Positions 25,146 to 45,590 of a stretch of 64,000 bases of DNA are shown one piece after another. Numbering within the stretch: position 1 is the first letter of the stretch; every line of letters begins with the position of its first letter. The translations under genes were made by a program, and so were the position numbers. The notes under the pieces were generated by a model that saw nothing but the letters and a program-made list of their open reading frames with translations, searched no databases and had not been told where the DNA came from. Source of the stretch: Rhodospirillales bacterium (GTDB taxonomy: Bacteria > Pseudomonadota > Alphaproteobacteria > ATCC43930 > CGMCC-115725); NCBI GenBank assembly GCA_028291405.1, contig JAQGID010000226.1:1177-65176 (forward strand). Reading direction: 5' to 3'.

Positions 25146-25655
25146 CTAATGCGCCGCGAACGGATGCGATACCTGATCGGCCTGCTCCAGCACTTGCTTT
25201 GCCGTCGGCTCGCCGGCGATGGCGCGCTTCAAGGAGAGCTTCGTCGCCTCGTAGTTGTATTGCTGGATCTTCTTGTCGTCGGATGCTTCCCAATGGATGA
25301 AGACACCGACGCAAACGAACAGATCGTCGGCCTGGTCGGCGTCGATGGTGCCGTCCTTGACGCTGTCGGCGACCGCCTTCGCGACAGCGTGCTGGGCCGG
25401 ACCGAACATCTGAACGGCCTGCTTGGCGCTCTTGATGGTGACCTTGTTGAACATGACGGTATTGGGCTTGCATGGCAGGTTCGGGGCAATAAGCGCCAGC
25501 AACCCGTTCACCCCTTCGCGCTGGCTTGTCAAGGTCCGGCAGAACGTGTCCTCGGCCGGCGACCCCCGCGGGCCGATGAGGAGATCGATGTGCGCGACCT
25601 CGTTGCCGTCCCCGACGAGTGCTTCGCCGACCATCGTTTTACTCACCTTTGCCAT
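25146..25655 (-). CDS. fae: formaldehyde-activating enzyme Fae
   Basis: [82 protein letters not shown] closely resembles Methylobacterium Fae as I recall it. Confidence 0.97.
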
Positions 25656-25890
25656 CAGTGTCCTCCACTTGCCCGCCGTCCGCAGAAACCAAGCAAATCG
25701 TAGAAGATATATGGCGTGATCTCACCTACAACTTTCGTATTAGGGCCATGCTGCGCCTTTGCGAAAGAGTGATTTGTCATTCTATTATTGTAAATAGCGG
25801 GTTCTCGATTTGAATTGATCGGTGAGCCGGTCGATGCGGGCAACCACTCCGTTGTCGGCGAACGCCGCATTGCGGTTGAGGGAGGAAGCG
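25656..25890. promoter_or_regulatory. divergent fae / xoxF promoter region
   Basis: 235-bp AT-enriched spacer between two divergent, strongly RBS-equipped genes. No specific boxes assigned. Confidence 0.4.
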
Positions 25891-27681
25891 ATGAAAAAAG
25901 CGTGGAATTACCTGCTGGCAATATCGGCCATCGGCATCGTGCCTTCGGTCGCATCGGCGAACGATGAACTGCTGAAGCTCCAGAAGGATCCAAATCAGTG
26001 GGTCATGCCGACGGGCGACTATGCCAATCACCGGTACAGCGAGCTCAAGCAGATCACCAAGGAAAACGTCAAGAATTTGAGGCCGGTTTGGACATTCTCG
26101 ACCGGCGTCTTGCGCGGCCACGAGGGCGCGCCTCTCGTTATCGGCGACATCATGTACGTCCATACGCCGTTTCCGAACTACGTCTATGCGCTCGATCTCA
26201 ACAACGCCGGACGGATCATCTGGAAATACGAGCCGAAGCAGGATCCCTCAGTGATCCCGGTGATGTGCTGCGACACGGTCAATCGCGGCGTTGCCTACGC
26301 CGGCGGCAAGATCATCCTGAACCAGGCCGACGCGAATGTCGTCGCGCTCGATGCCAAGACCGGCAAGGAGCTCTGGCGGGTCCAGAACGGCGACCCGAAG
26401 AAGGGCGAGACCATGACCGCCGCCCCGATGATCGTGAAGGACAAGGTGCTCGTCGGGATCAGCGGCGGCGAGTTCGGCGTCCAGGGCCGCCTCACCGCCT
26501 ATAATCTGGCGGACGGCAAGATGGTCTGGAACGCCTATTCGGTCGGCCCGGACGACCAGATCAAGTTCGATCCCGAGAAGACGACGGAGCTGGGCAAGCC
26601 GGTCGGCAAGGATTCGTCGGTGAAGACCTGGCAGGGCGACCAGTGGAAGATCGGCGGCGGCACGACTTGGGGCTGGTACTCCTACGATCCGCAGCTCAAC
26701 CTAGTTTACTACGGCTCGGGTAACCCAAGCACCTGGAACCCCGTGCAGCGCCCGGGCGACAATAAATGGTCGATGACGATCTTCGCGCGCAACCCGGATA
26801 CCGGCGTCGCGAAATGGGTCTATCAGATGACCCCACACGACGAATGGGACTATGACGGCGTTAATGAGATGATCCTCGCCGATATCCCGGTGAAGGGCCA
26901 GAACGTCAAGGCGCTCGTCCACTTCGACCGTAACGGCTTCGGCTACACGCTCAACCGCGAGAACGGGGCGCTGCTGGTCGCCGAAAAATACGATCCCAAG
27001 GTGAATTGGGCGACGAAGATCGACATGACGACGGGACGGCCGGTCGGCGTCAAGCAGTACAGCACTGAGGCGGGCGGCGAAGACCACAACAGCAAGAACA
27101 TCTGCCCGGCGGCTCTCGGCACCAAGGACCAGCAGCCGGCGGCGTTCTCGCCCAAGACGAACGTGTTCTACGTGCCGACCAACCACGTCTGCATGGACTA
27201 CGAGCCCTTCAAGGTGAGCTACTCGGCCGGCCAGCCCTACGTCGGGGCGACCCTGTCGATGTACCCGCCGCAGGGCGAGCAGACCCTGGGCAATTTCATT
27301 GCCTGGGACGCCGGACAGGGCAAGATCCTGTGGTCCGACCCCGAGCCCTTCTCGGTGTGGTCCGGGGCGCTCGCGACGGCCGGCGACGTCGTCTTCTACG
27401 GCACGCTCGAGGGCTATCTGAAGGCGGTCGACCCGGCGAACGGCAAGGAGCTCTATCGCTTCAAGACCCCGTCGGGGATCATTGGTAACGTGATGACCTA
27501 CGTCCACGGCGGCAAGCAATACATCGCCGTCCTCTCGGGCGTCGGCGGCTGGGCCGGGATCGGCATGGCGGCGGGTCTGAGCAAGGACACTGACGGGCTC
27601 GGCGCCGTCGGCGCCTACAAGGCTCTTTCCAACTATACGCAGCTCGGCGGGACGCTCACGGTGTTCGCCCTGTCGAATTGA
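25891..27681 (+). CDS. xoxF: PQQ-dependent methanol dehydrogenase, XoxF (lanthanide) type
   Basis: Signal peptide; vicinal CC ([10 protein letters not shown]); W-motif propeller repeats; [12 protein letters not shown] carries the extra Asp (DYD) diagnostic of XoxF versus MxaF (DYA/DFA). Confidence 0.95.
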
Positions 27682-27700
27682 TGGTTCAGCGCTGACTATC

Positions 27701-27738
27701 GGCGGCATCCCAGAAAGATCGGGATGCCGCCTTTTTTT
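27701..27738 (+). terminator. rho-independent terminator after xoxF
   Basis: GGCGGCATCCC-agaaagatc-GGGATGCCGCC (11-bp stem) followed by TTTTTTT, 20 nt after the xoxF stop. Confidence 0.85.
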
Positions 27739-27796
27739 GGTCGCCGAGTGCCGCGGCGCATGCGCGGCGCTCGCGGTAGATTTTACGGAGCAAGGT

Positions 27797-28264
27797 ATGG
27801 TTATGAAGGGTCGCTGCGGTATCGGTGTTGTGGCATCCGTCGCTGTCGCTACAGGATGCGCGCTCGGGCTTTTGGCGGTCGGCGCCGCAGCCCAGGACAA
27901 GCCCGCCCAGGACAAGCCCGCCCAGGACAAGCCCTACACGGTCGTCGACGGCAAGGTCGACAAGGGCACCTACAATGGCTGGCGGCGTTACACGGAAGCC
28001 TGCCTGCGTTGCCATGGCCCGGACGGGGCGGGCAGCTCATACGCCCCCGACCTTCTGGACTCGCTCAAATCCATGAGCGAGGACCAGTTCAAGGAGGTCG
28101 TGGTCAACGGCCGGCAGAACGTCACGAGCTCGGCGACGAACGTGATGCCGCCGTTCGGCACCGTCGAGGACGTCATGCTCTACCTCGACGACATCTACGC
28201 CTATCTGAAGGCTCGGTCCGACGGTGCGCTCGACCGCGGCCGTCCCGAGCGGATCGAGCAATAG
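27797..28264 (+). CDS. periplasmic mono-haem c-type cytochrome (XoxG-candidate)
   Basis: Signal peptide, a single CLRCH haem motif and a distal NVMPPFG Met ligand region. GGAG RBS. Confidence 0.85.
   Translation: MVMKGRCGIGVVASVAVATGCALGLLAVGAAAQDKPAQDKPAQDKPYTVVDGKVDKGTYNGWRRYTEACLRCHGPDGAGSSYAPDLLDSLKSMSEDQFKEVVVNGRQNVTSSATNVMPPFGTVEDVMLYLDDIYAYLKARSDGALDRGRPERIEQ
27890..27934 (+). repeat. 3 x 15-nt in-frame tandem repeat encoding AQDKP-AQDKP-AQDKP
   Basis: gcccaggacaagccc repeated three times, directly after the predicted signal-peptide cleavage site of the cytochrome. Confidence 0.9.
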
Positions 28265-28320
28265 CGGGCTTTCTTCCGAAGCAAAGCTGAAACAAACCGG
28301 TCTGAGCGGTTCGGCAGCCG

Positions 28321-28351
28321 ATCGGACGGCGGGCGATGCCCGCCGTCCGAT
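28321..28351. terminator. GC-rich hairpin between the convergent cytochrome c and porin genes
   Basis: ATCGGACGGCGGGC-gat-GCCCGCCGTCCGAT, a perfect 14-bp stem. No U-tract on either side. Confidence 0.5.
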
Positions 28352-28358
28352 ACGTCGT

Positions 28359-29852
28359 TCAGAAGAAGACGATGGTGCCGGCTGCGACCGTATCCTCGCT
28401 CGCAGCGTTGCCACCTTGCGCGCGGGAATGCGTGTGAGTGTATTCGGTAACGAGATTGATCCAATCGGTCAGTTTGTAATGGATGCCGAAGGACTCGGAT
28501 TCATTGTCTTTGACAAGGAGCGGATTGACCTCGCCGTTGGCAAGGCCTAGGTGACTCAACCCGTAGCTGCCGCCGACCGTCAGACGCTCGAAAAACGTAT
28601 AGGTCAGTTGCCCGATGTAGCCGTTCGAACTCCGCTTTTCGCCGGTTGCACTGACCGCGTCGAAGAAGAGACCGGTCGTGCCGATGCCGTCGCCGGTGTA
28701 GCCGTACAGCATCAAGGCGGCGCCGCCCAAGGTAAGCTTTGCGCCTACGTCGCCACCGAGGGCACGGTGGGAGGTCGAGGTGGCCGGTGCATCGCCGATG
28801 CCGTTGCTCTTGAAATTCTGCGTCACCATGTTGGTCCAGAATTTCGCACCGACCGGACCAAGGGTGCCGTCCGGCACTGTATACGTGACCTTTGCCTGGA
28901 TTTGCGGCTCGTCGTGCGCCGATAGAGTTCCGGAGACGCCGCTGAAGTTAAAGGCGTTGAGCGGCGTGAAGACGCCGGCCGCGCCTTGCAACCCGGCAAA
29001 TTCCGGCGAGGTGTAAGTGATTTGGGGGATCCAGTCGGTATAGATATAGCCGAGGCCTATGCGGCCAAACGTCGTGTTGGACGGCGCAATATTGCCGCCG
29101 GGGCTGCCTACGCCGAATAGCGTGAAGTCGTTGAGGATGGCTTCCTGAGCGAAGAGGCCGATATCGCGTCCGGCTTTGAAGGTTCCCATGCGCGGGGTGC
29201 CGACCGTGACGAATTGCTGGCGGAAGTCGATGCCGCTCGTGCCGAGCGCGCGGGCATTGCCGGCCGAGTTCGCGCCACCGACGCCGCTGACGCTGTTGAG
29301 GCCCGGATAGAAGCCGAAGGTGACGCCGATGTCGTATCCTTCCTGCCGTGTCTTCAGGTTTATGCTGAAATTTCCCGGTAGCAGACCGTTGCGCACCGAC
29401 GCGGAATTGTTGCCTCCGGTATTCGCGAGGCCGCCGAGGACCGTCGTCGATGGCGAGAGCCTGTCAGGCATATCGTGCACATAGAAGGCGTTGATGTTGC
29501 CGGAGAAGCTGAGATCGACCGGCCCGATGTGCATACCGATGCCCTTATCCATCATGGTGATGAACGGGGTGCTCGGCGCCAGCGCCGGATTAACGCGCGT
29601 CGCGCTCGCCGGCGCCGCTTCCTGCGCGGGCTGCTGCGCCACCGGTGGGGGCGGCGCCTGGCGCTGCTCGGTCGTCTTGCGCTGCTTAAGGGCGAGAAAC
29701 TCCTGCTGGGTCAAGATGCCCTTGGCGCGCAGCTTGTCGAGCAGGTCATCGGTCGTATCGGCGAAGGCCGGTGCGCCGAGCAGCAACACGAGGCCGCCGG
29801 CCAGCGCGGCTGTACGATAGGCAACGACGGAGTCAGGGTTATCCTGCTTCAT
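28359..29852 (-). CDS. outer-membrane porin with Pro/Gln-rich N-terminal linker
   Basis: Signal peptide (..GAPAFA), coiled/Pro-rich segment, long amphipathic beta-strand region, C-terminal ..AAGTIVFF. GGGAGGA RBS. Confidence 0.8.
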   Translation of the reverse strand: MKQDNPDSVVAYRTAALAGGLVLLLGAPAFADTTDDLLDKLRAKGILTQQEFLALKQRKTTEQRQAPPPPVAQQPAQEAAPASATRVNPALAPSTPFITMMDKGIGMHIGPVDLSFSGNINAFYVHDMPDRLSPSTTVLGGLANTGGNNSASVRNGLLPGNFSINLKTRQEGYDIGVTFGFYPGLNSVSGVGGANSAGNARALGTSGIDFRQQFVTVGTPRMGTFKAGRDIGLFAQEAILNDFTLFGVGSPGGNIAPSNTTFGRIGLGYIYTDWIPQITYTSPEFAGLQGAAGVFTPLNAFNFSGVSGTLSAHDEPQIQAKVTYTVPDGTLGPVGAKFWTNMVTQNFKSNGIGDAPATSTSHRALGGDVGAKLTLGGAALMLYGYTGDGIGTTGLFFDAVSATGEKRSSNGYIGQLTYTFFERLTVGGSYGLSHLGLANGEVNPLLVKDNESESFGIHYKLTDWINLVTEYTHTHSRAQGGNAASEDTVAAGTIVFF

Positions 29853-30153
29853 GGCAGCTTCGTCCTCCCGCTCATCCAGCCCGCGCGACGCCGCCGGGCT
29901 CGTTTTATTTCGCGCCGTTCCGCAGCCTTCGAGCTTCCTCGTCGATGTTCAGTAAAGAGAGAACACGACCGAATATGCTCATTAGGAACGGCATCAAAGC
30001 TTTTGACGCGATGAGACGGTGACTGAAATGCAACTATAGTTGTATTGTATTCGAGGCGCGAACGTTAGATGTTGTCAGTGTTGGCGCGGCAGCAACCGAA
30101 AAAATATCGGCTGTCGTAACAATTGTTCTTGGGAGGAACGGGGGGAGGCGCCA

Positions 30154-30690
30154 TTGGCCGACTGCACGCCGAGTGCCGACCTGTCGTCACCACCGCGGCA
30201 TTGCCCGCATTGCGGCAATGCTCGCACTTGTCGCTGGGGATTTTTTCACGGCTCGCAGCGCTATCGGTGCCGACAATGCGGCCGCACGTTCAATGCTTTG
30301 ACCGGAACGCGATATGCACGGCTGCGTAGCGCCGAGCTTTGGCTCGACTACCGCGCGGCGATCGTCGCGCAGCTCAGTATCAGAGGCGCGGCGGACCACT
30401 GCGGAATCAGCGTCCCGACGGCGCGTCGCTGGCGCCGCCGCATCGGTGCGGCGCCCGATCCGGAGATCGACGGGACGAGCGGGCGTACGGCAGTGCCAGA
30501 CAAGGCATCGCACAGCGACATGGGACCGGCATCGGGAATGCGGGACCGCGGCGAGATCGATTTCGTCGAATGGGCCCGTGCCGCGACCGCCATCGACGGC
30601 GGGCATGCCATGCGCGAAAGGCTCGATGTTTTATTCGGGGCGGCTTCGCCCCACGCCGACGCGGAACGGGGAAGTGACAAAAAAAAATAA
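30154..30690 (+). CDS. orphan IS1-InsA / IS1595-N-terminal-like zinc-ribbon plus HTH protein
   Basis: CPHCGNARTCRWGFFHGSQRYRCRQCGRTFNALTG (CxxC..CxxC ribbon), then LSIRGAADHCGISVPTARRWRRRI (HTH). TTG start after GGGGAG; the ORF opens at 30040. No DDE transposase ORF is adjacent. Confidence 0.55.
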   Translation: MADCTPSADLSSPPRHCPHCGNARTCRWGFFHGSQRYRCRQCGRTFNALTGTRYARLRSAELWLDYRAAIVAQLSIRGAADHCGISVPTARRWRRRIGAAPDPEIDGTSGRTAVPDKASHSDMGPASGMRDRGEIDFVEWARAATAIDGGHAMRERLDVLFGAASPHADAERGSDKKK

Positions 30691-30720
30691 AAGCGGCATT
30701 CCAGTTTCCCGGAATGCCGC
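30679..30720 (-). terminator. rho-independent terminator of pqqA
   Basis: Minus strand reads GCGGCATTCC-gggaaac-tGGAATGCCGC followed by TTTTATTTTTTTTT. The U-tract is the complement of the Lys-Lys-Lys-stop end of the convergent zinc-ribbon gene. Confidence 0.8.
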
Positions 30721-30757
30721 CGATCGGTCGTTGGGACCGTCGCGCAGGTGTGAGGTT

Positions 30758-30838
30758 TCAGGCGACTTTCGCGCATGCGTAGCTGTTGATTTCCATTCCG
30801 ACCGGCAATTCGGTGATCCGTGGCTTTGACCAACGCAT
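30758..30838 (-). CDS. pqqA: PQQ precursor peptide PqqA (26 aa)
   Basis: Read by hand because it is too short for the ORF track: MRWSKPRITELPVGMEINSYACAKVA. It has the PqqA hallmarks: W3, KP, and E16-x3-Y20 within G-M-E-I-N-S-Y. GAGGAG RBS 6 nt upstream; terminator 37 nt downstream. Confidence 0.9.
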   Translation of the reverse strand: MRWSKPRITELPVGMEINSYACAKVA

Positions 30839-31062
30839 TTTCCGCTCCTCGGTGAATCAGCCGACACCCGGTGGGCGTCAGTTTGTTAGAGTCGCGCGGA
30901 AACCAAATCTGGCCAATACGCCTTTAGTCGTAGATGGAGGAGCAGCCAGTCCCGCCTGTTGGGAAACGCTCGTGCCGCACCCACGTGAGCAATGGTTGGG
31001 ACAAATGCACTTGCCTGTCGCGCCAAACTCCGCCACGGTCGGTGTTGGAGGAAACGCGCCAA

Positions 31063-31773
31063 ATGTCGCGCATGGACAGAATTCTGATCGCGGACGACCA
31101 CCCGCTGGTGCGCGGCGCTCTCGCGCTGTCCGTCGAGGCGGCCTTCGGCAGGATCGAGATCCTGGAATGTGCCAGCTTCGGCGAGCTCATCGTGCAGCTC
31201 GAACGCACAGGGATCGCCGATCTCGCGCTTCTGGATCTGCTGATGCCGGGAGTGAACGGCTTCGACGGCCTGCTCACCGTGCGCGCCAGGTTTCCGGAGA
31301 CGCCGGTCGTCATCATCTCGGCGCTGGAGGAAAGGCGTCTGGTCGATGAGGCGATCGCCCTCGGCGCCGCCGGTTTCATCCCGAAATCGACGCCGCGTCA
31401 GGACATCGTCGCGGCGCTGCACCGCGTCGCCGCAGGCGAGATCTACATCCCCGCAGACCGTCACGCCGCCGATGCGGCGGCCAGGCGGCCTCTCGACGCG
31501 GAGGATATCGAGATCGCGCAGAAGCTGTCGACCCTTACGACGCAGCAGCTGCGGGTGCTGCGTCTGCTCGGGACGGGAAAGCTCAACAAGGAAATTGCCT
31601 ACGAGCTCGAGATTGCCGAGCCGACCGTGAAGGTCCACGTCTCCGCGATCTTGCAAAAGCTGAAAGTCTACAGCCGCACACAAGCTGTCGTGGTTGCCGG
31701 CCGGCTGCTCTCGACCGAGGTGTTGGAAGAGGCTGGCCAAGGCCGCTTCTCTCGAGAGAGGACGAGCGCCTAG
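31063..31773 (+). CDS. LuxR/FixJ (NarL-type) response regulator
   Basis: Receiver ILIADDHPLVR..LLDLLMPG..FIPKS plus C-terminal HTH LTTQQLRVLRLLGTGKLNKEIAYELEIAEPTVKVHVSAILQKL. Confidence 0.9.
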   Translation: MSRMDRILIADDHPLVRGALALSVEAAFGRIEILECASFGELIVQLERTGIADLALLDLLMPGVNGFDGLLTVRARFPETPVVIISALEERRLVDEAIALGAAGFIPKSTPRQDIVAALHRVAAGEIYIPADRHAADAAARRPLDAEDIEIAQKLSTLTTQQLRVLRLLGTGKLNKEIAYELEIAEPTVKVHVSAILQKLKVYSRTQAVVVAGRLLSTEVLEEAGQGRFSRERTSA

Positions 31774-31795
31774 AGCAGAGCGTCCGTCATCGCCA

Positions 31796-34423
31796 TCAAC
31801 GGAGCATCTGCGTCATCAGCGAGCGAAGCTGCGCCGGCTTGATCGGCTTGTTGAGCAGCCGGCAGCCATGCTCCTTGGCGATGACCTTGACCTCCGACGA
31901 GCGGTTCGCCGTGACGATGATGCAGGGTAGGGCTTTCCCGCACGCCTCCGAAATTCGCCCGATCTCGGTCACGCCGACGGCGCCGTCGTCGAGGTGGAAA
32001 TCGGCGATCACGAGATCCGGCATCGAGGGCAGCGACGGAAGGAGCGCGAGCGCCGCATCGCCCGAGGTCGCGACACAGACGCGACAATTCCACCCGCCGA
32101 GCAGCGCGGTCATGCCGGCAAGGATGCTCGGCTCGTTGTCGATGACCAGGACGAGGGCGCGCGAAAGGCGCTGCTCGGAGGCGCTTCGAGGCGCGGCGCG
32201 CGGCATGGCGACCGGGGCGTCGCCGTAGGGGATCGTCACGTGGAATACCGAGCCGTGGTCAGGCGTCGATCGAACGCCGACGGGAACCTCCAGGGTCTTG
32301 GCGATGCGCTTGACGATCGCCAAGCCCAGGCCGACGCCGCGATCCTGCTTGGCGCGCGCGTTCGGCAGCTGGCGGAACTCCTCGAAAATCTCGTCGAGCT
32401 TTTCCGCCGGAATGCCGATGCCGGTGTCCCATACCTCGATGCGTAGTCCCGCGTTGATTCGGCGGCAACCGATCAGCACGCGTCCCAGGGGCGTGTAACG
32501 CAGCGCATTGCTGAGAAAGTTCTGGATGATGCGACGCAGCAGCCGGACGTCGCAGCGCACGACGCAGCGCGACGGCACCAGGCGAAGCTCCAGTCCGCGC
32601 TTGGCAGCGAGCAGCGTGTACTCGGTCGAGAGCGGGACGAGCAGCGAGCTGATGTGGAAATCGATGATCTCCGGCGAGACGGCGCCGGCGTCGAACTTCG
32701 AGATGTCGAGAAGGGTACCGAGCAGATCCTCGACGCTGCCGAGCGATTCGTCGACGTTGTCGAGAAGCGTCCGGTTGCGCTCGTCCTGGTCCAGCTCGGC
32801 GAGGGCGGAGACGAAAAGGCGGGCGGCGTTCAGCGGCTGCAGCAGATCGTGGCTCGCGGCCGCGAGGAACTTGGTCTTGCCGAGATTGGCCATCTCCGCG
32901 TCGGTCTTTGCGACCTTGAGCGCTGCCTCGATCTCGCGCCGCTCGGCGATCTCCTGCTGCAGCTTCTCGTTCAGGATCGTCAGCGCCGCGGTACGGTCCT
33001 CGACACGCCGCTCGAGCGTCTCGTTGGCTTCCTTGAGCGCGGCGGCGAAAACGCGCCGCTCCGTGATGTCCTGCACCAGCGTGAAGAAGCCGAGAATCTC
33101 GTGGTCGTCCCCGAAATGCGGCACGGAGGTCGCGAGGCCGAACGCCGGGCGGTTCGCGCCAGTCGGCGTCAGCTCGACCTCGAAAGTGACGCTCTCGCCG
33201 GACAGCGCGCGGCCGACGTAGTCCTTGCGGCGCTCATAGAATTCCGCCGGCAGGACCTCGCTCATGCGGCGGCCGATGATGTCGCTCTCGGCCCGCCCGA
33301 TCCAGCGGCAATAGGGCTGATTGACGAACTGATAGATCTGATCGGCGTCGACGTAGGAGATGAGCGCCGGCGTCGCATCGGTGATCAGCCGGATGCGTTG
33401 CTCGCCGTCGCGCAGGGCGTTCTCGATCTGCTTGCGGCGGGTGATGTCGTCGAAGCTCAGGACGAAGCCGCCGTCCGGCATCGGATTGCGCTGGACCTCA
33501 ATGACGCGGCCGCCGAGCCAGGCGACCTCGAATTTGAGCGGCGTCGAATCGTGCGGCTCGAGCCGTTCGCAGAGTACGTCGCCCGGGGTGCCGAGGCGGC
33601 TGATATAGGCGGTGAAATCGGCGAAGCTGGCGTCGCGCCTTACGACCTGCGCCGGGAGGTCGAAGGTGCGAATGAATTCGTTGTTCCAGGCCGCCAGCTT
33701 GAAGTTGCGATCGTAGACGCCGACGCCTTCGAAGATGTTGTCGAGCGTCGCCTGCAAAAGCGTGCTCTTTTCGGACAGCTCGGCCTCGCGCTGCAGGGTC
33801 TCGCGGCGCTTGAGATCTGTGATATCGGTATAGATGCAGACGATGCCGCCGTCGGTCGTACGCTTCTCGTTGACCTGCATCCAGCGCCCATCGCTCAGCG
33901 CATGCACCGAAGGTCCTTGCGGATCGTTGTGCTGGGCAAGGCGCCGCCGTATCCAGTCGTCGGGGTCGCGGTAGGCATCGACCACCGCCTTGCGCTGCGC
34001 CGCGAGGACGACGATCTCGGTGAATGACATGCCGACGCGGATCAGATCCGAAATGCCCGGCCAGAACGTCAGGTAGCGCGGATTGAAGAGCACCAGCCGG
34101 TCGTGCGGATCGAACAGCGAGAACCCCTCGCTGACCGAGCCGATCGCCGCCATGAGCCGACGCTGCGCCGTCTCGAACTGCTCTTTCGCCGCGGCGACCT
34201 CGGCATAGGAACGTTCGAGCTCGCCAGTGCGCTCGCGAACTTTCGCCTCGAGTACGATCGCCGTCTGGAAGAGCGAGAAGGCCGAGCCCTGGGCGTCCAT
34301 GCTGCGCTCGACGCGATCCATTAGGGCAAGGTTGATCTTGCGCAGCTTCGCGATCTCGCGCTCGAGGGCGGCGATGCGGGAGTGCGACTCCTCGGCCGCG
34401 CGAAATGGGAGGATCGAGCTCAT
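31796..34423 (-). CDS. cytoplasmic multi-PAS hybrid sensor histidine kinase / response regulator
   Basis: N-terminal coiled coil and at least three PAS-like blocks. H-box FLAAASHDLLQPLN, N-box FLSNALRYT, G-boxes DTGIGIP and GVGLGLAIV. C-terminal receiver VLVIDNEP..VIADFHLDDG..NKP. No TM segments seen. Confidence 0.9.
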   Translation of the reverse strand: MSSILPFRAAEESHSRIAALEREIAKLRKINLALMDRVERSMDAQGSAFSLFQTAIVLEAKVRERTGELERSYAEVAAAKEQFETAQRRLMAAIGSVSEGFSLFDPHDRLVLFNPRYLTFWPGISDLIRVGMSFTEIVVLAAQRKAVVDAYRDPDDWIRRRLAQHNDPQGPSVHALSDGRWMQVNEKRTTDGGIVCIYTDITDLKRRETLQREAELSEKSTLLQATLDNIFEGVGVYDRNFKLAAWNNEFIRTFDLPAQVVRRDASFADFTAYISRLGTPGDVLCERLEPHDSTPLKFEVAWLGGRVIEVQRNPMPDGGFVLSFDDITRRKQIENALRDGEQRIRLITDATPALISYVDADQIYQFVNQPYCRWIGRAESDIIGRRMSEVLPAEFYERRKDYVGRALSGESVTFEVELTPTGANRPAFGLATSVPHFGDDHEILGFFTLVQDITERRVFAAALKEANETLERRVEDRTAALTILNEKLQQEIAERREIEAALKVAKTDAEMANLGKTKFLAAASHDLLQPLNAARLFVSALAELDQDERNRTLLDNVDESLGSVEDLLGTLLDISKFDAGAVSPEIIDFHISSLLVPLSTEYTLLAAKRGLELRLVPSRCVVRCDVRLLRRIIQNFLSNALRYTPLGRVLIGCRRINAGLRIEVWDTGIGIPAEKLDEIFEEFRQLPNARAKQDRGVGLGLAIVKRIAKTLEVPVGVRSTPDHGSVFHVTIPYGDAPVAMPRAAPRSASEQRLSRALVLVIDNEPSILAGMTALLGGWNCRVCVATSGDAALALLPSLPSMPDLVIADFHLDDGAVGVTEIGRISEACGKALPCIIVTANRSSEVKVIAKEHGCRLLNKPIKPAQLRSLMTQMLR

Positions 34424-35571
34424 TCGGCACCGATCGCGACGCCGGTCAGCGTCTGGTTGACATGCATCGAATTGAACTGCTCGCCGTAAGTGCAGAACCC
34501 GATCACGCCGTTCCGCACGAAGAGCTCGGAGACGATCGGCTTGAGCTGCCGCTGCTCGATTTCGAGATTACGCAGGACACAGTCGCAGCCGATGATCAAA
34601 TCCGGTTCTCCGACCTCTTCCTTGAGCCGCGCGAAAAGGTTTCGCAGATCCTGCACTACATCGACGCTCCTGGCGATGGTCAGCACGAGTCCGACATCGA
34701 TCGCGCAGAAGAAAGTGAGGCTGTTGTCGTCGTTGACCTTCTGGATCGAGCGAACGTGATAGAGGCCGCCGACACGCACCATCAGCGGATGGGCGGCGAA
34801 GATCATCGGCGTCGGCGGCGTGCCCGCCTGGCCGACCATCCGGGCGTATTCGTAGGCGGCGGGCTCGGCGTTCAGCTCTGTGACGACGCGGGCCGCGGGG
34901 TCGGCCCCGGTGACCACGACCTTTTGGTCGGTATGGACGAAGTGCTCGGTCTTGAAGACCGAGAAACGACGCGTCGTCGTGATAAGGAGCAGCGCGGCAG
35001 CGTCGGTGACGAAGGCGCCGCCGTAGAGGATCCAGGTGCAGCGGAAATTCATGTCGTCGCCGGCTGAGCCGCCGAGCAGCGGCGTGTCACCGAGCACCGT
35101 CGCGATGGCGCTGACGACCTGTTCCTCGCGCACCGACAGCCCATCGATCAGAAGAAGGGCGAAGCCGCGCGGCACGGCGCCGCCACGCGGGAAGGTTGCC
35201 GCGGCAAGCCGATCGCGCTCGGCGATGGCGGCGCGGGTCTTCTCGATCGTCGCGGCCAGCTCGAAATTGGCCAGGCCCTCGAACAATGCCGAGGCGACGA
35301 TGAAATCCTCACGCGGGAAGCCAATTCCGCAGACGCCGCCGTTGATGTAGCCGAAGGGCGCGATCTCGCCGGCGGTGGTACAGCCGAAGACGGGCGTATC
35401 GCCGAAATGATGGCGCACCGCCGCGGCAATCGTGCCGGTCTCGTATTGCGGCGAGCAGAAGATCACGGCAAAGGTAATATCGGGGCCGCCGATCAGACCG
35501 TGCAGCTCGGCGATCGCGTCATGCGGATCCACCGCCCGCGAGCCTCCGCGCAAGAGTCGGCGTTTCGGCAT
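34420..35571 (-). CDS. FIST (FIST_N + FIST_C) sensory domain protein
   Basis: FAVIFCSPQY..FGCTTAGEI..GFALLLIDGLS..LLGGSAGD..EPDLIIGCDCVLRNLE..GFCTYGEQ is the FIST pattern. Stop overlaps the kinase start (ATGA). Confidence 0.85.
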   Translation of the reverse strand: MPKRRLLRGGSRAVDPHDAIAELHGLIGGPDITFAVIFCSPQYETGTIAAAVRHHFGDTPVFGCTTAGEIAPFGYINGGVCGIGFPREDFIVASALFEGLANFELAATIEKTRAAIAERDRLAAATFPRGGAVPRGFALLLIDGLSVREEQVVSAIATVLGDTPLLGGSAGDDMNFRCTWILYGGAFVTDAAALLLITTTRRFSVFKTEHFVHTDQKVVVTGADPAARVVTELNAEPAAYEYARMVGQAGTPPTPMIFAAHPLMVRVGGLYHVRSIQKVNDDNSLTFFCAIDVGLVLTIARSVDVVQDLRNLFARLKEEVGEPDLIIGCDCVLRNLEIEQRQLKPIVSELFVRNGVIGFCTYGEQFNSMHVNQTLTGVAIGAE

Positions 35572-35869
35572 GGAAAAACAGCCCCGCTGTTCCGCGCGAC
35601 GACGACGACCGCGGGGCCTTATCGGCCTAGGATTGCTGCGATCGCCCGAACTACGTGTCGATCGTATCCCAGCTTGCGGCGGATTTGAACCGCCCGATGA
35701 TATTCGGCGGAGCCGGCGGAAAATCGCCTCGCTCCGGAATATCGCATCGGCTAGTCTGCGGCTGCCCCAGCCGATCGCTTCCGGACGTCGCGCTCGCGGC
35801 TTCGTTTGGATCGACGCCTGCCGCAAGAAGGCGCTCCTCATGCGCCCGGATGACGAGGAGGACCTACCC

Positions 35870-36235
35870 GTGACCATCCGCTTCCTCTTGCCGCTCGCTG
35901 CCGTCCTCCTGATCGCCGACGCGACCGGTCCCGGGACGGGTTCGGCCGCCGAGCGCCTGCGCTTCTGGAACCTGACGACGACAACCATCTCCGAGCTCTA
36001 TCTCGCGCCTGTCGGAACGACGGATTGGGGTGCGAACCAATGCTTGAACGATCGCGACGGCGCCGTCGATTCGGACGAGCGGCTCGCGATCACCGGCATC
36101 GATCCCGGCGTGTACGACGTCAAGTTGGTGGATAAGAAAGGCCGCCTGTGCCAGCTGAAAGGTGTCAAGGTCGAGGCCGGAAGACCCTATGCCTTCTCGA
36201 TCGCCGATGGCGATCTGACGGATTGCACGAAATGA
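35870..36235 (+). CDS. secreted hypothetical protein (121 aa, 3 Cys)
   Basis: GTG start 8 nt after GAGGAGGA. Signal-like MTIRFLLPLAAVLLIADA. The stop overlaps the start of the beta-propeller gene (ATGA). An alternative ATG lies at 35840. Confidence 0.55.
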   Translation: MTIRFLLPLAAVLLIADATGPGTGSAAERLRFWNLTTTTISELYLAPVGTTDWGANQCLNDRDGAVDSDERLAITGIDPGVYDVKLVDKKGRLCQLKGVKVEAGRPYAFSIADGDLTDCTK

Positions 36236-37233
36236 GCGAGGCCATGATCTCCACAGCACTGTGGAAGTACGGCACAGCCGCCTTTCTCGCCGGTGCCGGC
36301 ATCCTCCTGACCGTCGCTCCCTGTCTTTCCGAGACCATCCTCGTCTCGAACGAAAAGGGCAATACGATCACCGTCCTCGATGCCGACAGCCTGACGACGC
36401 TTCGCACGATTCCGGTTGGACAGCGGCCGCGCGGCATCGTCCTGTCGAAGGACCGCAATACGCTCTTCATCTGCGCCAGCGACGACGACGACATCAACGT
36501 GCTCGACCTGACCGACTACACGCTGAAGGAGCCTTTGCCGAGCGGGCCGGATCCGGAGACCTTCGCGCTTCATCCTGACGGTCAGCATCTCTACGTCTCG
36601 AACGAGGACGACAGCCTCGTCTCCATCGTCGACATCAAGCAGCGCCGCGTCATCGGCGAGATTCCGGTCGGCGTCGAGCCAGAGGGAATCGGCATAAGCC
36701 CGGATGGGCGGTGGATCGTGAATACCTCCGAGACGACCAGCATGGCGCATTTCATCGACAACGAGAGCCATCAGGTCGTCAGCAACGTCCTCGTCGATGC
36801 GAGGCCGCGCCATGCGGAATGGACCGCCGACGGCGCGCAGGTCTGGGTCTCGGCCGAGGTCGGCGGCACGGTAACGGTGATCGACGCGGCGAAGCGCAGC
36901 GCCGTCCAGAAAATCAAATTCGCCGTGCCCGGCGTTCCCGACGAGGCGATCCAGCCGGTCGGGATCCTGCTGACCGCGGACCGGAAGCTTGCCTTCGTCG
37001 CCCTCGGCCCCGCCAATCGTGTCGCCGTGATCGACGCCCAGACCTATGAGGTGAAGCGCTATCTTCTGGTCGGGCAACGCGTCTGGAATCTCGCCTTCAA
37101 CCACGACCAGAGCCGCATCTACACGACCAATGGGGTCAGCAGCGACATCTCGGTTATCGATGTCGCAGCGCAGCGGGTCCTCAAATCGGTGCCGGTCGGC
37201 GAGCAGCCATGGGGCATCGTCGTCAGACCATAG
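36232..37233 (+). CDS. YVTN-repeat beta-propeller protein (PQQ-dependent catabolism-associated type)
   Basis: Signal/anchor, then repeated ..PRGI..S.DG..L(Y/F)V(S/T)N... blades (VGQRPRGIVLSKD, GPDPETFALHPDG, GVEPEGIGISPDG, ARPRHAEWTADG, GEQPWGIVV). Confidence 0.85.
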   Translation: MSEAMISTALWKYGTAAFLAGAGILLTVAPCLSETILVSNEKGNTITVLDADSLTTLRTIPVGQRPRGIVLSKDRNTLFICASDDDDINVLDLTDYTLKEPLPSGPDPETFALHPDGQHLYVSNEDDSLVSIVDIKQRRVIGEIPVGVEPEGIGISPDGRWIVNTSETTSMAHFIDNESHQVVSNVLVDARPRHAEWTADGAQVWVSAEVGGTVTVIDAAKRSAVQKIKFAVPGVPDEAIQPVGILLTADRKLAFVALGPANRVAVIDAQTYEVKRYLLVGQRVWNLAFNHDQSRIYTTNGVSSDISVIDVAAQRVLKSVPVGEQPWGIVVRP

Positions 37234-37353
37234 TCGTACGGCTTCATCATGCGCTCGCGTTGCGCGGCCGGGGCCGAGGGAATATGGTTTGTGTAAAGCT
37301 GCGCAATCGCTCGCGGATCGAGACCGCTGGCGGCGCAACCAGGGAGAGAAACG

Positions 37354-37770
37354 ATGGCCAGCGTCGATATGTCGATCGGTCTCAATGCACCGGCCGAGAA
37401 GGTCTGGGCGCTGATCGGCGGCTTCGCCGATCTGCCGCGGTGGCATCCGGCGTTTGCGAAGAGCGAGGTGCGCGAGGGCGGCAAACTGAAGCGCCGTCTC
37501 ACCCTCCAGGACGGCGCGTCGATCCTCGAGCAGCTCGACCATCATGACGATGCGACGAGGACGTACAGCTATACGATCGTAACGAGCCCGCTGCCGATCG
37601 CCGACTACCGCTCGGAGCTGAGCGTCCGCGACGATGGCCCGGGCCGCTGCACGGTGCGCTGGAAAAGTACGTTCGAGCCGGAAGGCGCGCCGCGGGTGGA
37701 TGCCGAGGCGGCGATCCGCGGCGTGTACCAGGGCGGTTTCGATCGGCTGGCGCAGATCTTCGCTGGCTGA
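37354..37770 (+). CDS. SRPBCC (polyketide-cyclase/START-like) family protein
   Basis: 138 aa; APAEKVWALIGGFADLPRWHP..YSYTIV..W.STFEP is the typical SRPBCC layout. Confidence 0.85.
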   Translation: MASVDMSIGLNAPAEKVWALIGGFADLPRWHPAFAKSEVREGGKLKRRLTLQDGASILEQLDHHDDATRTYSYTIVTSPLPIADYRSELSVRDDGPGRCTVRWKSTFEPEGAPRVDAEAAIRGVYQGGFDRLAQIFAG

Positions 37771-37968
37771 ACCGCTAGTTCTTTCGATCTATAGACGCTC
37801 GATCAACGCGATCGATACTGTTTCGATTCCGCCGCAACGAACAGAATAGGACGAGGTCGTGGAGGGAGGCTGGGAGCGTCACGCGCGCAGGGGGCTCGGT
37901 AGTTGCATCCGGTGCTCGCCTCCAGCTTCGATGACTTGCTGTGAGCGGTGCACGAACGACAGGTAGAC

Positions 37969-38892
37969 ATGCGCGCTGTTGTCTTAGGCTCGGCGGCGGG
38001 TGGCGGGTTTCCGCAGTGGAATTCGAATGCGCCGGCATGCCGGCGGGCGCGACGCGGCGATACCGTTGCGGTGGCTCGCACCCAGGCGTCGCTTGCGATT
38101 TCGGCGGATGCGCGTTCCTGGTTCCTCCTGAATGCCTCACCCGATCTGCGTGAGCAGATCGCGCACTCGGAGTTCCTGTGGCCGAGCGAGGGGCTGCGCT
38201 CGTCGCCGATCGCCGGCGTCGTGCTGACCGGCGCCGATGTCGACGCCGTTGCCGGCCTGCTCTCGATGCGCGAGCGCCAGCCCTTTGCGCTCTATGCCAC
38301 GGCGGAGGTGCAGGCGGCACTCGCCGGCAACCCGATCTTCGAAGTCCTGACGGCCGATTGCGTCGAGCGCCGCGTTTTGCCGCTCGATCGTCCGGTGCCG
38401 CTCGCTGGCAGCGGCGGAATCGATTCCGGCCTCGACGTGCTCGCCTTTGCGGTACCTGGCAAAGTACCGTTGTGGTGCGAGGGCGGCCGTGACCCCGGCG
38501 TCCAGGAGACCGGCCACTCCGTTGGGCTGGCGCTCGCCGAGCGCGGCCGGCCGGCCCATGTCTTTTTCGTACCCGGCTGCGCGGCAATGACTCCGGCTCT
38601 GGCGCAGCGCCTGCGCAGCGCGGCGGCGGTCTTCTTCGATGGGACGCTGTGGCGCGACGACGAGATGATCCGTCTCGGGGTCGGCGACAAGACCGGCCGC
38701 CGGATGGGCCATATGAGCATGTCGGGCGACGATGGCGCGATTGCCGCGCTTCGCGATCTCGCGATCTCGCGCAAGATCTTCGTCCACATCAACAACACCA
38801 ATCCCGTCCTGCTCGAAGGCTCGCCGGAGCGCGTCGCCGCCGAAGCCGCGGGTTGGACCGTCGCCCATGACGGCTTGGAGTTGACGCTATGA
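37969..38892 (+). CDS. pqqB: PQQ biosynthesis protein PqqB
   Basis: MRAVVLGSAAGGGFPQWNSN..LLNASPD..VLTGADVDAVAGLL..HINNTNP is the MBL-like PqqB signature. Confidence 0.95.
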   Translation: MRAVVLGSAAGGGFPQWNSNAPACRRARRGDTVAVARTQASLAISADARSWFLLNASPDLREQIAHSEFLWPSEGLRSSPIAGVVLTGADVDAVAGLLSMRERQPFALYATAEVQAALAGNPIFEVLTADCVERRVLPLDRPVPLAGSGGIDSGLDVLAFAVPGKVPLWCEGGRDPGVQETGHSVGLALAERGRPAHVFFVPGCAAMTPALAQRLRSAAAVFFDGTLWRDDEMIRLGVGDKTGRRMGHMSMSGDDGAIAALRDLAISRKIFVHINNTNPVLLEGSPERVAAEAAGWTVAHDGLELTL

Positions 38893-39629
38893 ACGGCTTG
38901 ATGACTGCGCGGGAGCTGGAGGCGGCGCTTCGCGAGCTCGGCGCGCAGCGCTACCACAATCTGCACCCCTTCCACCGCTTGCTGCACGGCGGCAAGCTCG
39001 ATCGCGGCCAGGTGCAGGCCTGGGCGCTCAACCGCTACTGCTATCAAAGCGCCATCCCGCGCAAAGACGCGAGCCTGATCGCGCGGACCGATGATCCCGA
39101 CCTCCGCCGCCTCTGGCGCCAGCGCCTCATCGACCATGACGGCGAGGCGGAAGGCGAGGGCGGGATTGCGCGCTGGCTCGCGTTGACGAATGGTCTCGGC
39201 CTCGATCGCGACTACGTCATCTCGAAGCGGGGCGCGCTGGCGGCGACGCGGTTTGCGGTCGAGGCCTACGTCCATTTCGTCCGTGAGCAGAGCCTGCTCG
39301 AGGCGGTGGCGTCTTCGCTCACCGAGCTGTTTTCCACGACCATCATCAGCGAGCGGGTCTCCGGCATGCTGGCCGGCTACTCCTTCATCGACCGAGAGAC
39401 GTTGGCCTATTTCAACGCACGGCTGACTCAGGCGCCGCGCGACGCCGATTTCGCGCTCGAATACGTGAAGCGCGAGGCCCGCTCACCGGAGCAGCAACAA
39501 GCTGTGCTCGGTGCGCTCGCCTTCAAATGCGACGTGCTCTGGGCGCAGCTCGATGCGCTCTATCACGCCTACGTCGAGCCCGGACACATACCGCCCGGCG
39601 CCTTCCGACCCGGCGAGACGGTGCGGTGA
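38889..39629 (+). CDS. pqqC: pyrroloquinoline-quinone synthase PqqC
   Basis: YHNLHPFHRLLHGGKL..VQAWALNRYCYQ..IPRKDA..ALAATRFAVEAYV..SSLTELF. Start overlaps the pqqB stop (ATGA). Confidence 0.97.
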   Translation: MNGLMTARELEAALRELGAQRYHNLHPFHRLLHGGKLDRGQVQAWALNRYCYQSAIPRKDASLIARTDDPDLRRLWRQRLIDHDGEAEGEGGIARWLALTNGLGLDRDYVISKRGALAATRFAVEAYVHFVREQSLLEAVASSLTELFSTTIISERVSGMLAGYSFIDRETLAYFNARLTQAPRDADFALEYVKREARSPEQQQAVLGALAFKCDVLWAQLDALYHAYVEPGHIPPGAFRPGETVR

Positions 39630-39934
39630 ACGAGGGCCGGACACCGCCGCGGCGCATCGACGCCGACGCCATTCCGCGGCTGAAGCCGCATGTTCGGCTG
39701 CAGTTCAGCGAGGCGCGCAGCGCGTGGATCGTCCAGGCGCCGGAGCGTGTGCTGATGCCGGACGACATCGCCCTTGCCGTGCTGCAGCGCTGCGATGGCG
39801 TCGCGAGCGTCGCGGCGATCGTCACCGCCCTGGCGTCCGCCTACGACGCGCCGCCAAGCGAGGTCGAGGGCGACGTCGTCGAGTTGCTGCAGGATCTTGC
39901 CGAGAAGGGGATCATCGCCGATGCCCGAGATTGA
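39626..39934 (+). CDS. pqqD: PQQ biosynthesis peptide chaperone PqqD
   Basis: PRLKPHVRLQFSEARSAWIVQAPERVLMPDDIALAVLQRCDG..DVVELLQDLAEKGII. GTG start overlaps the pqqC stop (GTGA). Confidence 0.9.
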   Translation: MNEGRTPPRRIDADAIPRLKPHVRLQFSEARSAWIVQAPERVLMPDDIALAVLQRCDGVASVAAIVTALASAYDAPPSEVEGDVVELLQDLAEKGIIADARD

Positions 39935-41048
39935 GGCGCCGCTCGCCATCCTGGCCGAGCTGACCCATCGCTGCCCGCTGCAGTGTCCCTATTGCTCCAA
40001 TCCGCTCGAGCTCGAGCGCGCGCGGCAGGAGCTCGAAACCGACGAGTGGCTGCGGATCCTCGACGAGGCGGCAGCCCTCGGCGTGCTGCAGGTCCATTTC
40101 TCCGGCGGCGAGCCCATGGCGCGGCGCGACCTCGAGGCGCTCGTCGCGCATGCCGCGGCGGTCGGTCTCTACACCAACCTGATCACCTCCGGCGTCATGC
40201 TCGACGATCGCCGCGCCGCGGCTTTGGCCGCCGCCGGTCTCGATCACGTCCAGATCAGCTTCCAGGACGTCGACGATGCCGAGGGCGATCGGATCGCAGG
40301 CTACAAAGACGCCCAGCGCCAGAAGCGGGAGGCGGCGCGCCGCGTCCGTGGCGCCGGTCTGCCGCTCACTGTCAACGCGGTGGTGCATCGCCAGAACCTT
40401 GCGCGTCTCGCGGAGATGATCGAGCTCGCCGTCGAGCTCGATGCCGCCCGCATCGAGGTGGCGCACGTGCAATATTACGGCTGGGCGCTGCGGAACCGCG
40501 CCGCGCTCTTGCCGAGCCGCGCGCAGCTCGACGCGGCGACGGCGATCGTCGAGGAGGCGCGCGAGCGGCTGCGCGGTCGTCTCGTCATCGACTACGTCGT
40601 CCCGGATTACCATGCCGCGCTGCCCAAGGCCTGCATGGGCGGATGGGGAAGGCGCTTCCTCAACGTGACGCCCTCCGGCCACGTCCTGCCATGCCACGCC
40701 GCCGAGACCTTGCCCGGCTTCGACTTCCCCTCGGTGCGCGAGGCGAGTCTGGCAGCAATCTGGCGGAGCTCCGATGCCTTCAACCGCTTTCGCGGCACGA
40801 GCTGGATGCAGGAGCCCTGCCGCAATTGCGAGCGTCGCGAGATCGACTGGGGTGGTTGTCGCTGCCAGGCCTTCGCCTTGACCGGCGACATCAATGCGAC
40901 CGATCCGGTGTGCGGCAAGGTCGCAGACCGGACGATCCTCGAAGCGGCCGTGCGGGAGAGCGCGGCGCCGCCGCCGCCTTTGATCTACCGCCGGATCGGC
41001 GGCGAGCAGCCGGTACGGCCGGCGACCGTCGTTCCGACCGCAGGTTAG
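39921..41048 (+). CDS. pqqE: PqqA peptide cyclase PqqE (radical SAM/SPASM)
   Basis: LAELTHRCPLQCPYCSN radical-SAM CxxxCxxC motif; GGEP; C-terminal SPASM cysteines (CMGGWG.., PCH.., CRNCERREIDWGGCRCQA). Confidence 0.97.
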   Translation: MPEIEAPLAILAELTHRCPLQCPYCSNPLELERARQELETDEWLRILDEAAALGVLQVHFSGGEPMARRDLEALVAHAAAVGLYTNLITSGVMLDDRRAAALAAAGLDHVQISFQDVDDAEGDRIAGYKDAQRQKREAARRVRGAGLPLTVNAVVHRQNLARLAEMIELAVELDAARIEVAHVQYYGWALRNRAALLPSRAQLDAATAIVEEARERLRGRLVIDYVVPDYHAALPKACMGGWGRRFLNVTPSGHVLPCHAAETLPGFDFPSVREASLAAIWRSSDAFNRFRGTSWMQEPCRNCERREIDWGGCRCQAFALTGDINATDPVCGKVADRTILEAAVRESAAPPPPLIYRRIGGEQPVRPATVVPTAG

Positions 41049-41054
41049 CCGCCG

Positions 41055-41978: not shown

Positions 41979-42018
41979 TCGTCGGACGCCGTAGGTCCGA
42001 ATCGGCGAGGAGGTCGAG

Positions 42019-43967: not shown

Positions 43968-44237
43968 CCGCGCTCCTCCCCTGGGCATTTGCCCCGGCAG
44001 TTTTCGATTGATGCCAGTGTGCCAGATGTCGCCGGACCCAGCCAGACAATGAGGGGATCGCAGACTACGTCCATAGTCGTGGATGGGCCGCATTGGCCCG
44101 GCGTAACGGTTTTGTGAATAAACTTGGCCCGGAGTATGCAAGGAACCAAGTTATTCGGGAGCTTGTTGCCGGAAGCGTGTGTCACCTCATTTCTGGCAAT
44201 CCCCGAAGATGGTGTTAGGCGATTTGCGAGGGCAACG

Positions 44238-44966: not shown

Positions 44967-44996
44967 GAGCGGCGCCGCGATGATCGGAGGGGGCTG

Positions 44997-45572: not shown

Positions 45573-45590
45573 CCATCGGGAGAGGGCCAC

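Follow-up and report, generated by a model that had tools for sequence, protein, structure and literature searches.

The 64-kb stretch of DNA analysed here (the window) carries pqqBCDE genes in front of which no intact pqqA stands. Where, then, is the ribosomal precursor peptide of PQQ encoded, and how did its gene come to lie apart from the genes whose enzymes modify it? A sequence-only reading of the window had proposed a hidden 26-codon pqqA on the minus strand, far from pqqBCDE, and here we follow up that proposal by comparing the locus with its relatives.

A pqqA gene apart from pqqBCDE

The G+C content of the window is 66%, and genes were chosen by third-position G+C. The features around the candidate pqqA are as follows.

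25146-25655 (-): Fae
25822-27681 (+): XoxF-type PQQ dehydrogenase (TIGR03075, 780 bits), with a WDYDG motif
27737-28264 (+): methanol-type cytochrome c
28359-29852 (-): porin-like protein, with no family match; the name follows from its sequence and, by analogy, from the ped cluster
30040..30690 (+): IS1 InsA-like ORF with zinc ribbon and HTH, convergent with pqqA
30758..30838 (-): pqqA, 26 codons and a stop, product MRWSKPRITELPVGMEINSYACAKVA by direct translation
31063..31773 (+): NarL/LuxR-family response regulator (REC and GerE; Pfam Response_reg and GerE), divergent from pqqA
31796..34423 (-): PAS hybrid histidine kinase of the NahK/ErcS' family (NF041832, 469.7 bits, cut-off 400)
34420..35532 (-): NosP, a FIST-domain sensor (NF041558 equivalog, 453.3 bits, cut-off 450; FIST and FIST_C)
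Between NosP and pqqBCDE: PQQ-associated beta-propeller (TIGR03866)
37354-37770 (+): SRPBCC protein
37969-38892 (+): pqqB (TIGR02108 equivalog, 386.9 bits, above cut-off)
38889-39629 (+): pqqC (TIGR02111 equivalog, 374.1 bits, above cut-off)
39626-39934 (+): pqqD (TIGR03859 equivalog, 79.5 bits, above cut-off)
39921-41048 (+): pqqE (TIGR02109 equivalog, 579.4 bits, above cut-off)
After pqqBCDE: SoxH-like quinoprotein relay hydrolase (TIGR04559)
After pqqBCDE: SoxYZ-like carrier (TIGR04557)

The reading frame at 30758-30838(-) runs ATG CGT TGG ... GCC TGA, and its translation and both curated HMMs, the check that the sequence-only reading had itself suggested, agree that it is the proposed gene. 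Pfam PF08042 (PqqA) matches the 26-aa peptide with 34.7 bits (cut-off 21.1, E 1.7e-8) and TIGR02107 with 42.2 bits (cut-off 20, E 4.7e-11) over model positions 1-21 of 21. The peptide holds the Glu-x3-Tyr cross-link pair as Glu16-Ile-Asn-Ser-Tyr20, and its 26 residues fit the class of about 20-40. Glu16 and Tyr20 of PqqA are the residues that become PQQ. All 62 distinct seed PqqA sequences contain Glu-x3-Tyr, but the pattern used to collect them demanded it. An HMM of our own, built from 62 PqqA peptides of related loci and run on every stop-to-stop fragment in six frames, gave a single match in the 64 kb, namely this gene (E 2.8e-14); no second intact PqqA ORF was found in the window by either the regex or the HMM scan in six frames. 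All five genes, pqqA to pqqE, lie on the same contig with pqqBCDE intact, and the pqqB start at 37969 is 7.1 kb from pqqA, on the opposite strand.

The region from 25146 to 42840 is a methylotrophy and PQQ-alcohol-oxidation island, in which the XoxF-type dehydrogenase gene lies 3 kb from pqqA. We take the WDYDG motif of that dehydrogenase to be a lanthanide-type signature. No pqqF/pqqG-type protease was seen among the window ORFs scanned. Downstream, 44523-56756 holds genes of the tetrahydromethanopterin and methanofuran pathways, including FolB, ATP-grasp genes and a CitG-like gene, along with an AA_kinase, a flavoprotein and a DUF447 gene assigned by analogy with the gene calls of a related contig (L164, below), Mch at 53487-54461 and a methylene-H4MPT dehydrogenase-like gene at 55617-56756; these pathway genes suggest that the contig comes from a likely methylotroph. 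Three conserved ORFs of the region have no family match: one of 131 aa at 35840-36235(+), before the propeller gene, which is also called in the contig L001, and two of about 130 and 245-300 aa at 42859-44141(-), after the SoxYZ gene, which are called in both L001 and L164.

The arrangement in related contigs

Related loci were gathered via homologues of PqqC, PqqB and the regulator. L001, a Logan contig from another run, SRR13312976, is 100% identical to the window from FIST to SoxYZ and 99% identical at pqqB, where the query frame was off, and it too lacks a pqqA in front of pqqB. Among PqqB homologues a small group stands closest to the window, at 84-91% identity, and the next matches are at 73% or below. 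L164, a 108-kb contig from JGI 3300049982 whose proteins are 71-89% identical to those of the window, has its genes arranged alike, in the order xoxF, cytochrome c, porin(-), zinc-ribbon ORF, pqqA(-), regulator(+), kinase(-), NosP(-), propeller and pqqBCDE. Its pqqA, with the product MRWSKPRIIELPVGMEINSYACAKMA, is again divergent from the regulator. Both junctions are thus reproduced in independent contigs, L001 and L164, and the arrangement is not an assembly artefact. The separation of pqqA from pqqBCDE by some 7 kb and on the other strand, already described in the sequence-only reading, agrees with the coordinates and recurs in these contigs and in related lineages.

More distant relatives narrow down what is conserved. 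In L084 and L085, where the regulator is 75% and XoxF 88% identical to those of the window, and in L087, where the regulator is 70% identical, pqqA is also divergent from the regulator. The gene downstream of pqqA in L084 is a convergent fae and not the zinc-ribbon ORF, from which we conclude that the conserved unit is the pair of pqqA and regulator. Between the window and L164 the pqqA genes differ at 3, 2 and 10 sites in codon positions 1, 2 and 3, and between the window and L084 at 5, 5 and 15 sites; this bias to third positions points to a translated gene under purifying selection. By its sequence and these comparisons, 30758-30838(-) would be a functional gene for the ribosomal PQQ precursor peptide.

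The JGI gene calls on L164 and on a further relative, L165, do not include pqqA. In L164 a probably spurious ORF of 174 aa (2950-3474(-)) is called across it, and in L165 a 43-aa ORF (1877-2008(+)) is called near an intact pqqA at 2161-2241.

Expression signals around pqqA

Four non-coding elements were located around pqqA, all on its strand.

30845..30850 (-): Shine-Dalgarno sequence GAGGAG, 6 nt 5' of the pqqA ATG, by direct reading
30679..30721 (-): intrinsic terminator with a GC-rich stem of 12-13 bp and a 4-nt loop, then UUUUAUUUUUUUUU, from a terminator scan and RNA fold
30911..30933 (-): conserved block CTACGACTAAAGGCGTATTGGCC, about 75-95 nt 5' of the pqqA ATG, from alignments
31001..31013 (-): second conserved block CAAGTGCATTTGT, in the 224-nt divergent region between pqqA and the regulator, from an alignment

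The ribosome-binding site, at 30850-30845, lies where the sequence-only reading had put it, 6 nt before the gene, and is shared with relatives: GAGGAGCGGAA is kept in L164, and GGGAGG or AGAGGAG stands in the same place in L084 and L087. On the other side of the gene, the only site from the terminator scan is a stem-loop (30721-30692(-)) with TTTTATTTTTTTTT behind it, its onset being 36-37 nt past the stop codon. It has 13 base pairs, eight of them G-C, and then TTTATTTTTT, which are the GC hairpin and U-run of a rho-independent terminator. The RNA fold of the 86-nt 3' region of pqqA agrees with the scan (-34 kcal/mol, z = -4.45, equalled by none of 200 shuffles), and the hairpin arms are kept in L164 with one mismatch. 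The hairpin and U-tract that had been read some 37 nt past the gene are therefore real features of the sequence, and with its own ribosome-binding site and its own terminator pqqA stands, as had been claimed, as a monocistronic unit.

Upstream, the block at 30911..30933 is near-identical in L164 and recognisable in L084, and a similar motif, ...TAGTCGTATTGC, lies upstream of the canonical pqqA of L074, L088 and L089. We suggest that it is a candidate promoter, with a -10-like TATTGG, or a regulator site. The block at 31001..31013, a candidate operator, contains CAAG.GCATT.G, which the window, L164 and L084 share without change; this motif and CTACGACTAAAG.CGTATTGGCC are the conserved intergenic blocks beside pqqA. 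A scan of 30400-31200 for the sigma-70 consensus gave no promoter, so the promoter proposed for pqqA is based on conservation among three distinct sequences. Searched against Rfam at E<=1, 29800-31200 matched no known RNA family, so that nothing points to a riboswitch or sRNA that overlaps with the pqqA unit.

An ORF this short, passed over by gene callers, might have arisen by chance, or an assembly chimera might have separated a true pqqA from pqqB. Both curated HMMs score well above their cut-offs, however, and the peptide, its ribosome-binding site and its terminator are kept in independent contigs from other samples, in which (L001 and L164) both junctions recur. We give next to no weight to either explanation: 30758-30838(-) is a genuine member of the PqqA family, and a chance short ORF or an assembly chimera is excluded.

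A decayed pqqA at the canonical site

Placement of pqqA was surveyed in 80 genome loci found via PqqC. The canonical order pqqA-pqqB-pqqC on one strand was seen in about 57 of the 80, and in about seven pqqA comes directly before pqqC with no pqqB between. Loci of the latter kind are L089, L041, L048, L060, L061 and L076. The pqqA match of L083 is divergent and falls outside the classes, and L021 has a pqqA fragment at the contig end. Six pqqC loci (L020, L031, L033, L037, L050 and L059) have no pqqA within 10 kb; they come from two Methyloceanibacter MAGs, one Methylobacterium isolate and three other MAGs (an uncultured alphaproteobacterium, a Pseudomonadota bacterium and a Hyphomicrobiaceae bacterium). 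Among other unusual placements, pqqDE of Xanthobacter sp. AM11 (L042) are inverted and pqqA lies next to them, on the opposite strand.

By PqqC, a 'Candidatus Cybelea' MAG and an Acidiphilium MAG are the nearest genome representatives, at only 77-78% identity. The best synteny is found in a Stellaceae MAG (L074), in Nitrospirillum (L077 and L079) and in L088. In these four loci and in L089, regulator(+), kinase(-) and NosP(-) are followed directly by a canonical pqqA(+) and the pqq genes. We considered a simple inversion, which would flip the regulator genes too, yet the orientation of regulator(+), kinase(-) and NosP(-) is the same in these relatives. Since the regulator genes keep their orientation, a duplication or transposition of pqqA alone fits better than an inversion.

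We then find, at the canonical site upstream of pqqB, what appears to be the remains of the earlier gene. The five-way alignment of the pqqB-upstream regions of the window, L164, L165, L166 and L167 (A2) gives two features.

37775..37835 (+): conserved block of about 60 nt, 5' of the relic and pqqB, the best-conserved stretch of alignment A2
37854..37934 (+): decayed pqqA relic RSWREAGSVTRAGGSVVASGARLQLR*, at the canonical site upstream of pqqB

The relic keeps the 26-codon length without gaps, and has ATG changed to AGG, Glu16 to Val and Tyr20 to Gly. L165 has an intact pqqA at this place, MLWKKPKIITLAVGMEINSYACARLS (2161-2241), with its stop codon 19 nt before pqqB, and the relic is identical to it at 43 of 81 nt, ungapped. 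When the L165 gene was compared with some 128,000 window positions on both strands, at least 43 of 81 nt matched at two of them, the relic and the functional pqqA (48), the best chance match within the window being 42 of 81. Taken alone this similarity is marginal; with the syntenic position and the intermediate forms in relatives, we regard the relic as convincing. The syntenic relic of L166 is frameshifted and has lost the Tyr codon, that of L167 has its 5' half deleted and reads S-H-A-C-A-R-L, and that of L164 has its 3' half deleted, with the 5' half kept and Trp changed to Arg. The operon pqqA is thus decayed in four of five clade members (the window, L164, L166 and L167) and intact in L165. 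The sequence-only reading had held that the 200 nt upstream of pqqB (37771..37968) contain nothing PqqA-like. That no ORF is present there holds, and the window accordingly has a relic and no intact pqqA directly before pqqB on the same strand; the decayed copy at 37854-37934 had been missed. Its presence at the canonical site argues that pqqA was replaced and not simply moved.

In a neighbour-joining tree of concatenated PqqC, PqqD and PqqE, the window and L164-L167 form a clade with 100% bootstrap, in which distances are about 10% between members and about 33-36% to the canonical relatives; the nesting of L165 inside it is weak (64%). The different lesions, together with this nesting, suggest repeated loss of the operon copy once it had become redundant.

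The block at 37775-37835(+), CTAGTTCTTTCGATCTATAGACG.TCGATC..CGCGATCGATAC.GTTTCGATTCC, is the best-conserved non-coding stretch in the five clade members and contains two TTTCGAT repeats and CGATCG/ATCGAT palindromes. Within it, TTCTTTCGATCTATAG resembles TTCTTTAGTCGTATTG upstream of the canonical pqqA in L074 and L088. The block is probably the retained promoter or operator of the ancestral pqqA/pqq operon.

The copy at 30758-30838 could instead be a paralogue, accessory or condition-specific, of a main precursor gene elsewhere in the genome. The window covers 64 kb of that genome, and several pqqA copies are common: Hyphomicrobium FJNU-6 has five (PMC9851590), Methylobacterium oryzisoli (L038) four in tandem and Beijerinckia (L055) two. 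Against this, the decay of the operon copy in four of the five clade members fits a regulator-adjacent copy that carries the function, and the latter is under purifying selection across lineages whose regulators are 70-75% identical. Nor was a further copy found in the 64-kb window or in the 21 kb of L164 examined. We therefore think an accessory role for this gene improbable, and prefer to see it as the copy that replaced the operon gene.

The other neighbour of pqqA is the zinc-ribbon ORF of IS1/IS1595 type at 30040-30690(+), which matches NCBIfam NF050000 with 42.7 bits (cut-off 28). It aligns only to positions 1-81 of the 199 of the IS1 transposase model and has no catalytic part; an IS1 insertion sequence would have InsA and then the InsB' catalytic part, with terminal inverted repeats, and for want of the catalytic part this ORF does not qualify as one. 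It is in frame with L164 2768-3289 (59% identity, no gaps) and with L086 9432-9848 (49% identity, nine gaps), and within its first 85 codons substitutions fall preferentially at third positions. The GC3 of the ORF is 0.67, and that of the adjoining genes is above 0.8. In L086 the ORF lies upstream of the regulator with no pqqA in between. We considered that it might be a decaying IS relic that moved pqqA, and rejected this because its N-terminus is in frame and constrained in L164 and L086. It looks like a domesticated, retained InsA-like DNA-binding gene, and it is possible that an ancient IS1 insertion was involved in the rearrangement of pqqA. The flanks of pqqA are thus as first read, a zinc-ribbon IS-like gene and a LuxR-type regulator, except that the former, kept in frame in relatives, does not look like a fresh insertion.

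The regulator, kinase and NosP genes

The second flank, the LuxR-type regulator at 31063-31773, has the REC and GerE domains expected from that description, and can now be seen more exactly as a member of a ped-type module of NosP, NahK/ErcS' kinase and response regulator. Among NCBIfam models it scores highest on ErdR, with 176.7 bits, which falls short of the 390 cut-off. The hybrid kinase at 31796-34423 also matches NF041831 over its full length with 768.6 bits, below the 1500 cut-off, and an exact-sequence protein lookup of this kinase gave no record. The NosP gene, for which the start codon of 34420-35532(-) was adopted from the L001 gene call, adjoins the kinase gene with an overlap of 4 nt (34420-34423).

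In the ped cluster of Pseudomonas, NosP and PedS1 (NahK/ErcS') feed AgmR (ErbR/PedR1), the activator of the ped and pqq genes (PMC12997753). Like the window, the Pseudomonas ped/exa cluster has a porin, NosP, a hybrid kinase and a LuxR regulator (PMC12997753, Table 1), as well as a PQQ-associated beta-propeller, a SoxYZ-like carrier, a SoxH-like hydrolase and a PQQ alcohol dehydrogenase (PMC12997753). Unlike in the window, pqqA of Pseudomonas lies within pqq(F)ABCDE and does not adjoin agmR, and the likeness of the window regulator to AgmR is one of synteny. By this analogy, we suggest that the regulator is a candidate AgmR/ErbR-like activator. As a whole, 25146-42840 reads as an alphaproteobacterial counterpart of the Pseudomonas ped cluster, combined with Fae and a XoxF-type dehydrogenase.

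Proposed function and history

In the known pathway, PqqE, a radical-SAM enzyme, receives PqqA from PqqD and joins its Glu and Tyr by a cross-link, and after proteolysis PqqB and PqqC complete PQQ (PMC12997753). We propose that the peptide encoded at 30758-30838 would follow the same course: PqqD would bind it, PqqE would introduce the cross-link, and after trimming PqqB and PqqC would carry out the last steps, all four being encoded 7 kb away. The XoxF-type dehydrogenase, with its gene 3 kb from pqqA, would use the PQQ. Its tight, divergent pairing with a regulator instead of with the enzymes might suggest a different role, as a regulatory small peptide or mRNA for the adjacent two-component system or as the substrate of a different maturase, and the absence of a pqqF/pqqG-type protease from the ORFs scanned could be read in the same way. 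The full PqqA core is conserved, however, including Glu-x3-Tyr, the sole radical-SAM maturase nearby is a PqqE equivalog, and the relic at the operon site implies that the copy at 30758-30838 inherited the precursor role. Such a co-option seems to us very unlikely, and we retain the role of PQQ precursor.

As to history, a second pqqA copy would have arisen beside the regulator in an ancestor, after which the operon pqqA, now redundant, may have been lost on more than one occasion within the clade. The present pqqA transcript would run from the block about 75-95 nt 5' of the ATG to the terminator, some 225 nt, and transcription of pqqBCDE may start from the ancestral promoter block, which is retained, and pass through the relic. 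Transcribed separately, a substrate peptide needed in stoichiometric amounts could be made far above the level of the catalytic enzymes and have its own control. The adjacent AgmR/ErbR-like regulator probably controls pqqA, and would in turn receive input from the NahK/ErcS' kinase and NosP. High, separate expression of pqqA has a precedent in the unlinked gene of Methylosinus trichosporium OB3b (PMC3615186), and AgmR promotes pqq expression (PMC12997753). Taken together, we consider it quite probable, judging by comparison of sequences, that a stand-alone functional pqqA beside a regulator took over while the operon copy decayed, and that it would provide a separate supply of precursor under the adjacent regulator. 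A bolder proposal is that this uncultured clade has rewired pqqA to a divergent promoter pair with an AgmR-like regulator, which would make precursor supply the regulated step of PQQ synthesis, possibly in response to NO, haem or alcohol, with the repeated loss of the operon copy reflecting selection and not drift. We offer it tentatively, as a speculation that we ourselves find doubtful.

At 81 nt, pqqA is too short for gene callers and is missed by them, and PQQ synthesis would then be wrongly scored as incomplete in metagenome genomes of this kind; the remedy is to scan the wider surroundings in six frames with a PqqA HMM. The locus also illustrates the stepwise replacement of a precursor-peptide gene, with one intact operon copy, four differently damaged relics and a conserved regulator-adjacent copy. 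It lends support to the idea that PqqA supply is controlled apart from the enzymes and offers a candidate regulator-target pair in the 224-nt divergent region. Knowledge of how PQQ is made is unchanged.

Comparison with known pqqA systems

The canonical pqqABCDE operon is that of Klebsiella, Pseudomonas and Methylorubrum. Loci of this type among the relatives (L074, L077, L079 and L088) encode a peptide of the same family as that of the window, and PqqB, PqqC, PqqD and PqqE are likewise shared. A canonical pqqA has the orientation of pqqB and lies directly 5' of it, whereas in the window pqqA is on the other strand, 7 kb off and followed by a full terminator. A hairpin 3' of pqqA is also present in several canonical loci of relatives. 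In M. extorquens a hairpin after pqqA gives a short, abundant pqqA transcript.

Closer to the window is M. trichosporium OB3b, in which pqqA was not predicted by annotation and a manual search placed it at a locus apart from pqqBCDE (Matsen et al. 2013, PMC3615186). Transcription at that locus is limited to a short pqqA region and is very high, at about 12,000-14,000 units against 160-370 for pqqBCDE, or some 30-80 times (PMC3615186). The two cases share an unannotated pqqA at a distance from pqqBCDE, in an alphaproteobacterial methylotroph in OB3b (PMC3615186) and in a likely one for the window. Unlike in OB3b, pqqA of the window is within 7 kb of pqqBCDE and divergent from a LuxR regulator, and a relic of the operon copy is visible, none being reported in PMC3615186.

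Hyphomicrobium denitrificans FJNU-6 has five pqqA genes, unequally expressed, three of which stand alone elsewhere in the genome (PMC9851590), and stand-alone copies are also reported for Methylovorus and Methylobacterium (Ge et al. 2015, as cited in PMC9851590). A monocistronic pqqA away from the pqq operon is thus common to Hyphomicrobium FJNU-6 and the window (PMC9851590). As far as these species are described in that source, their operon-linked pqqA is intact, unlike that of the window; here the operon copy is dead, in contrast to Hyphomicrobium FJNU-6, and the stand-alone copy is the sole intact one seen in 64 kb. Since an unlinked, unannotated, monocistronic pqqA has already been documented (PMC3615186, PMC9851590), the pqqA of the window is in this respect an ordinary case. 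What is new is modest: a series of relics that records how the operon copy was replaced, and a divergent pairing of pqqA with a ped-type regulator that is kept across lineages.
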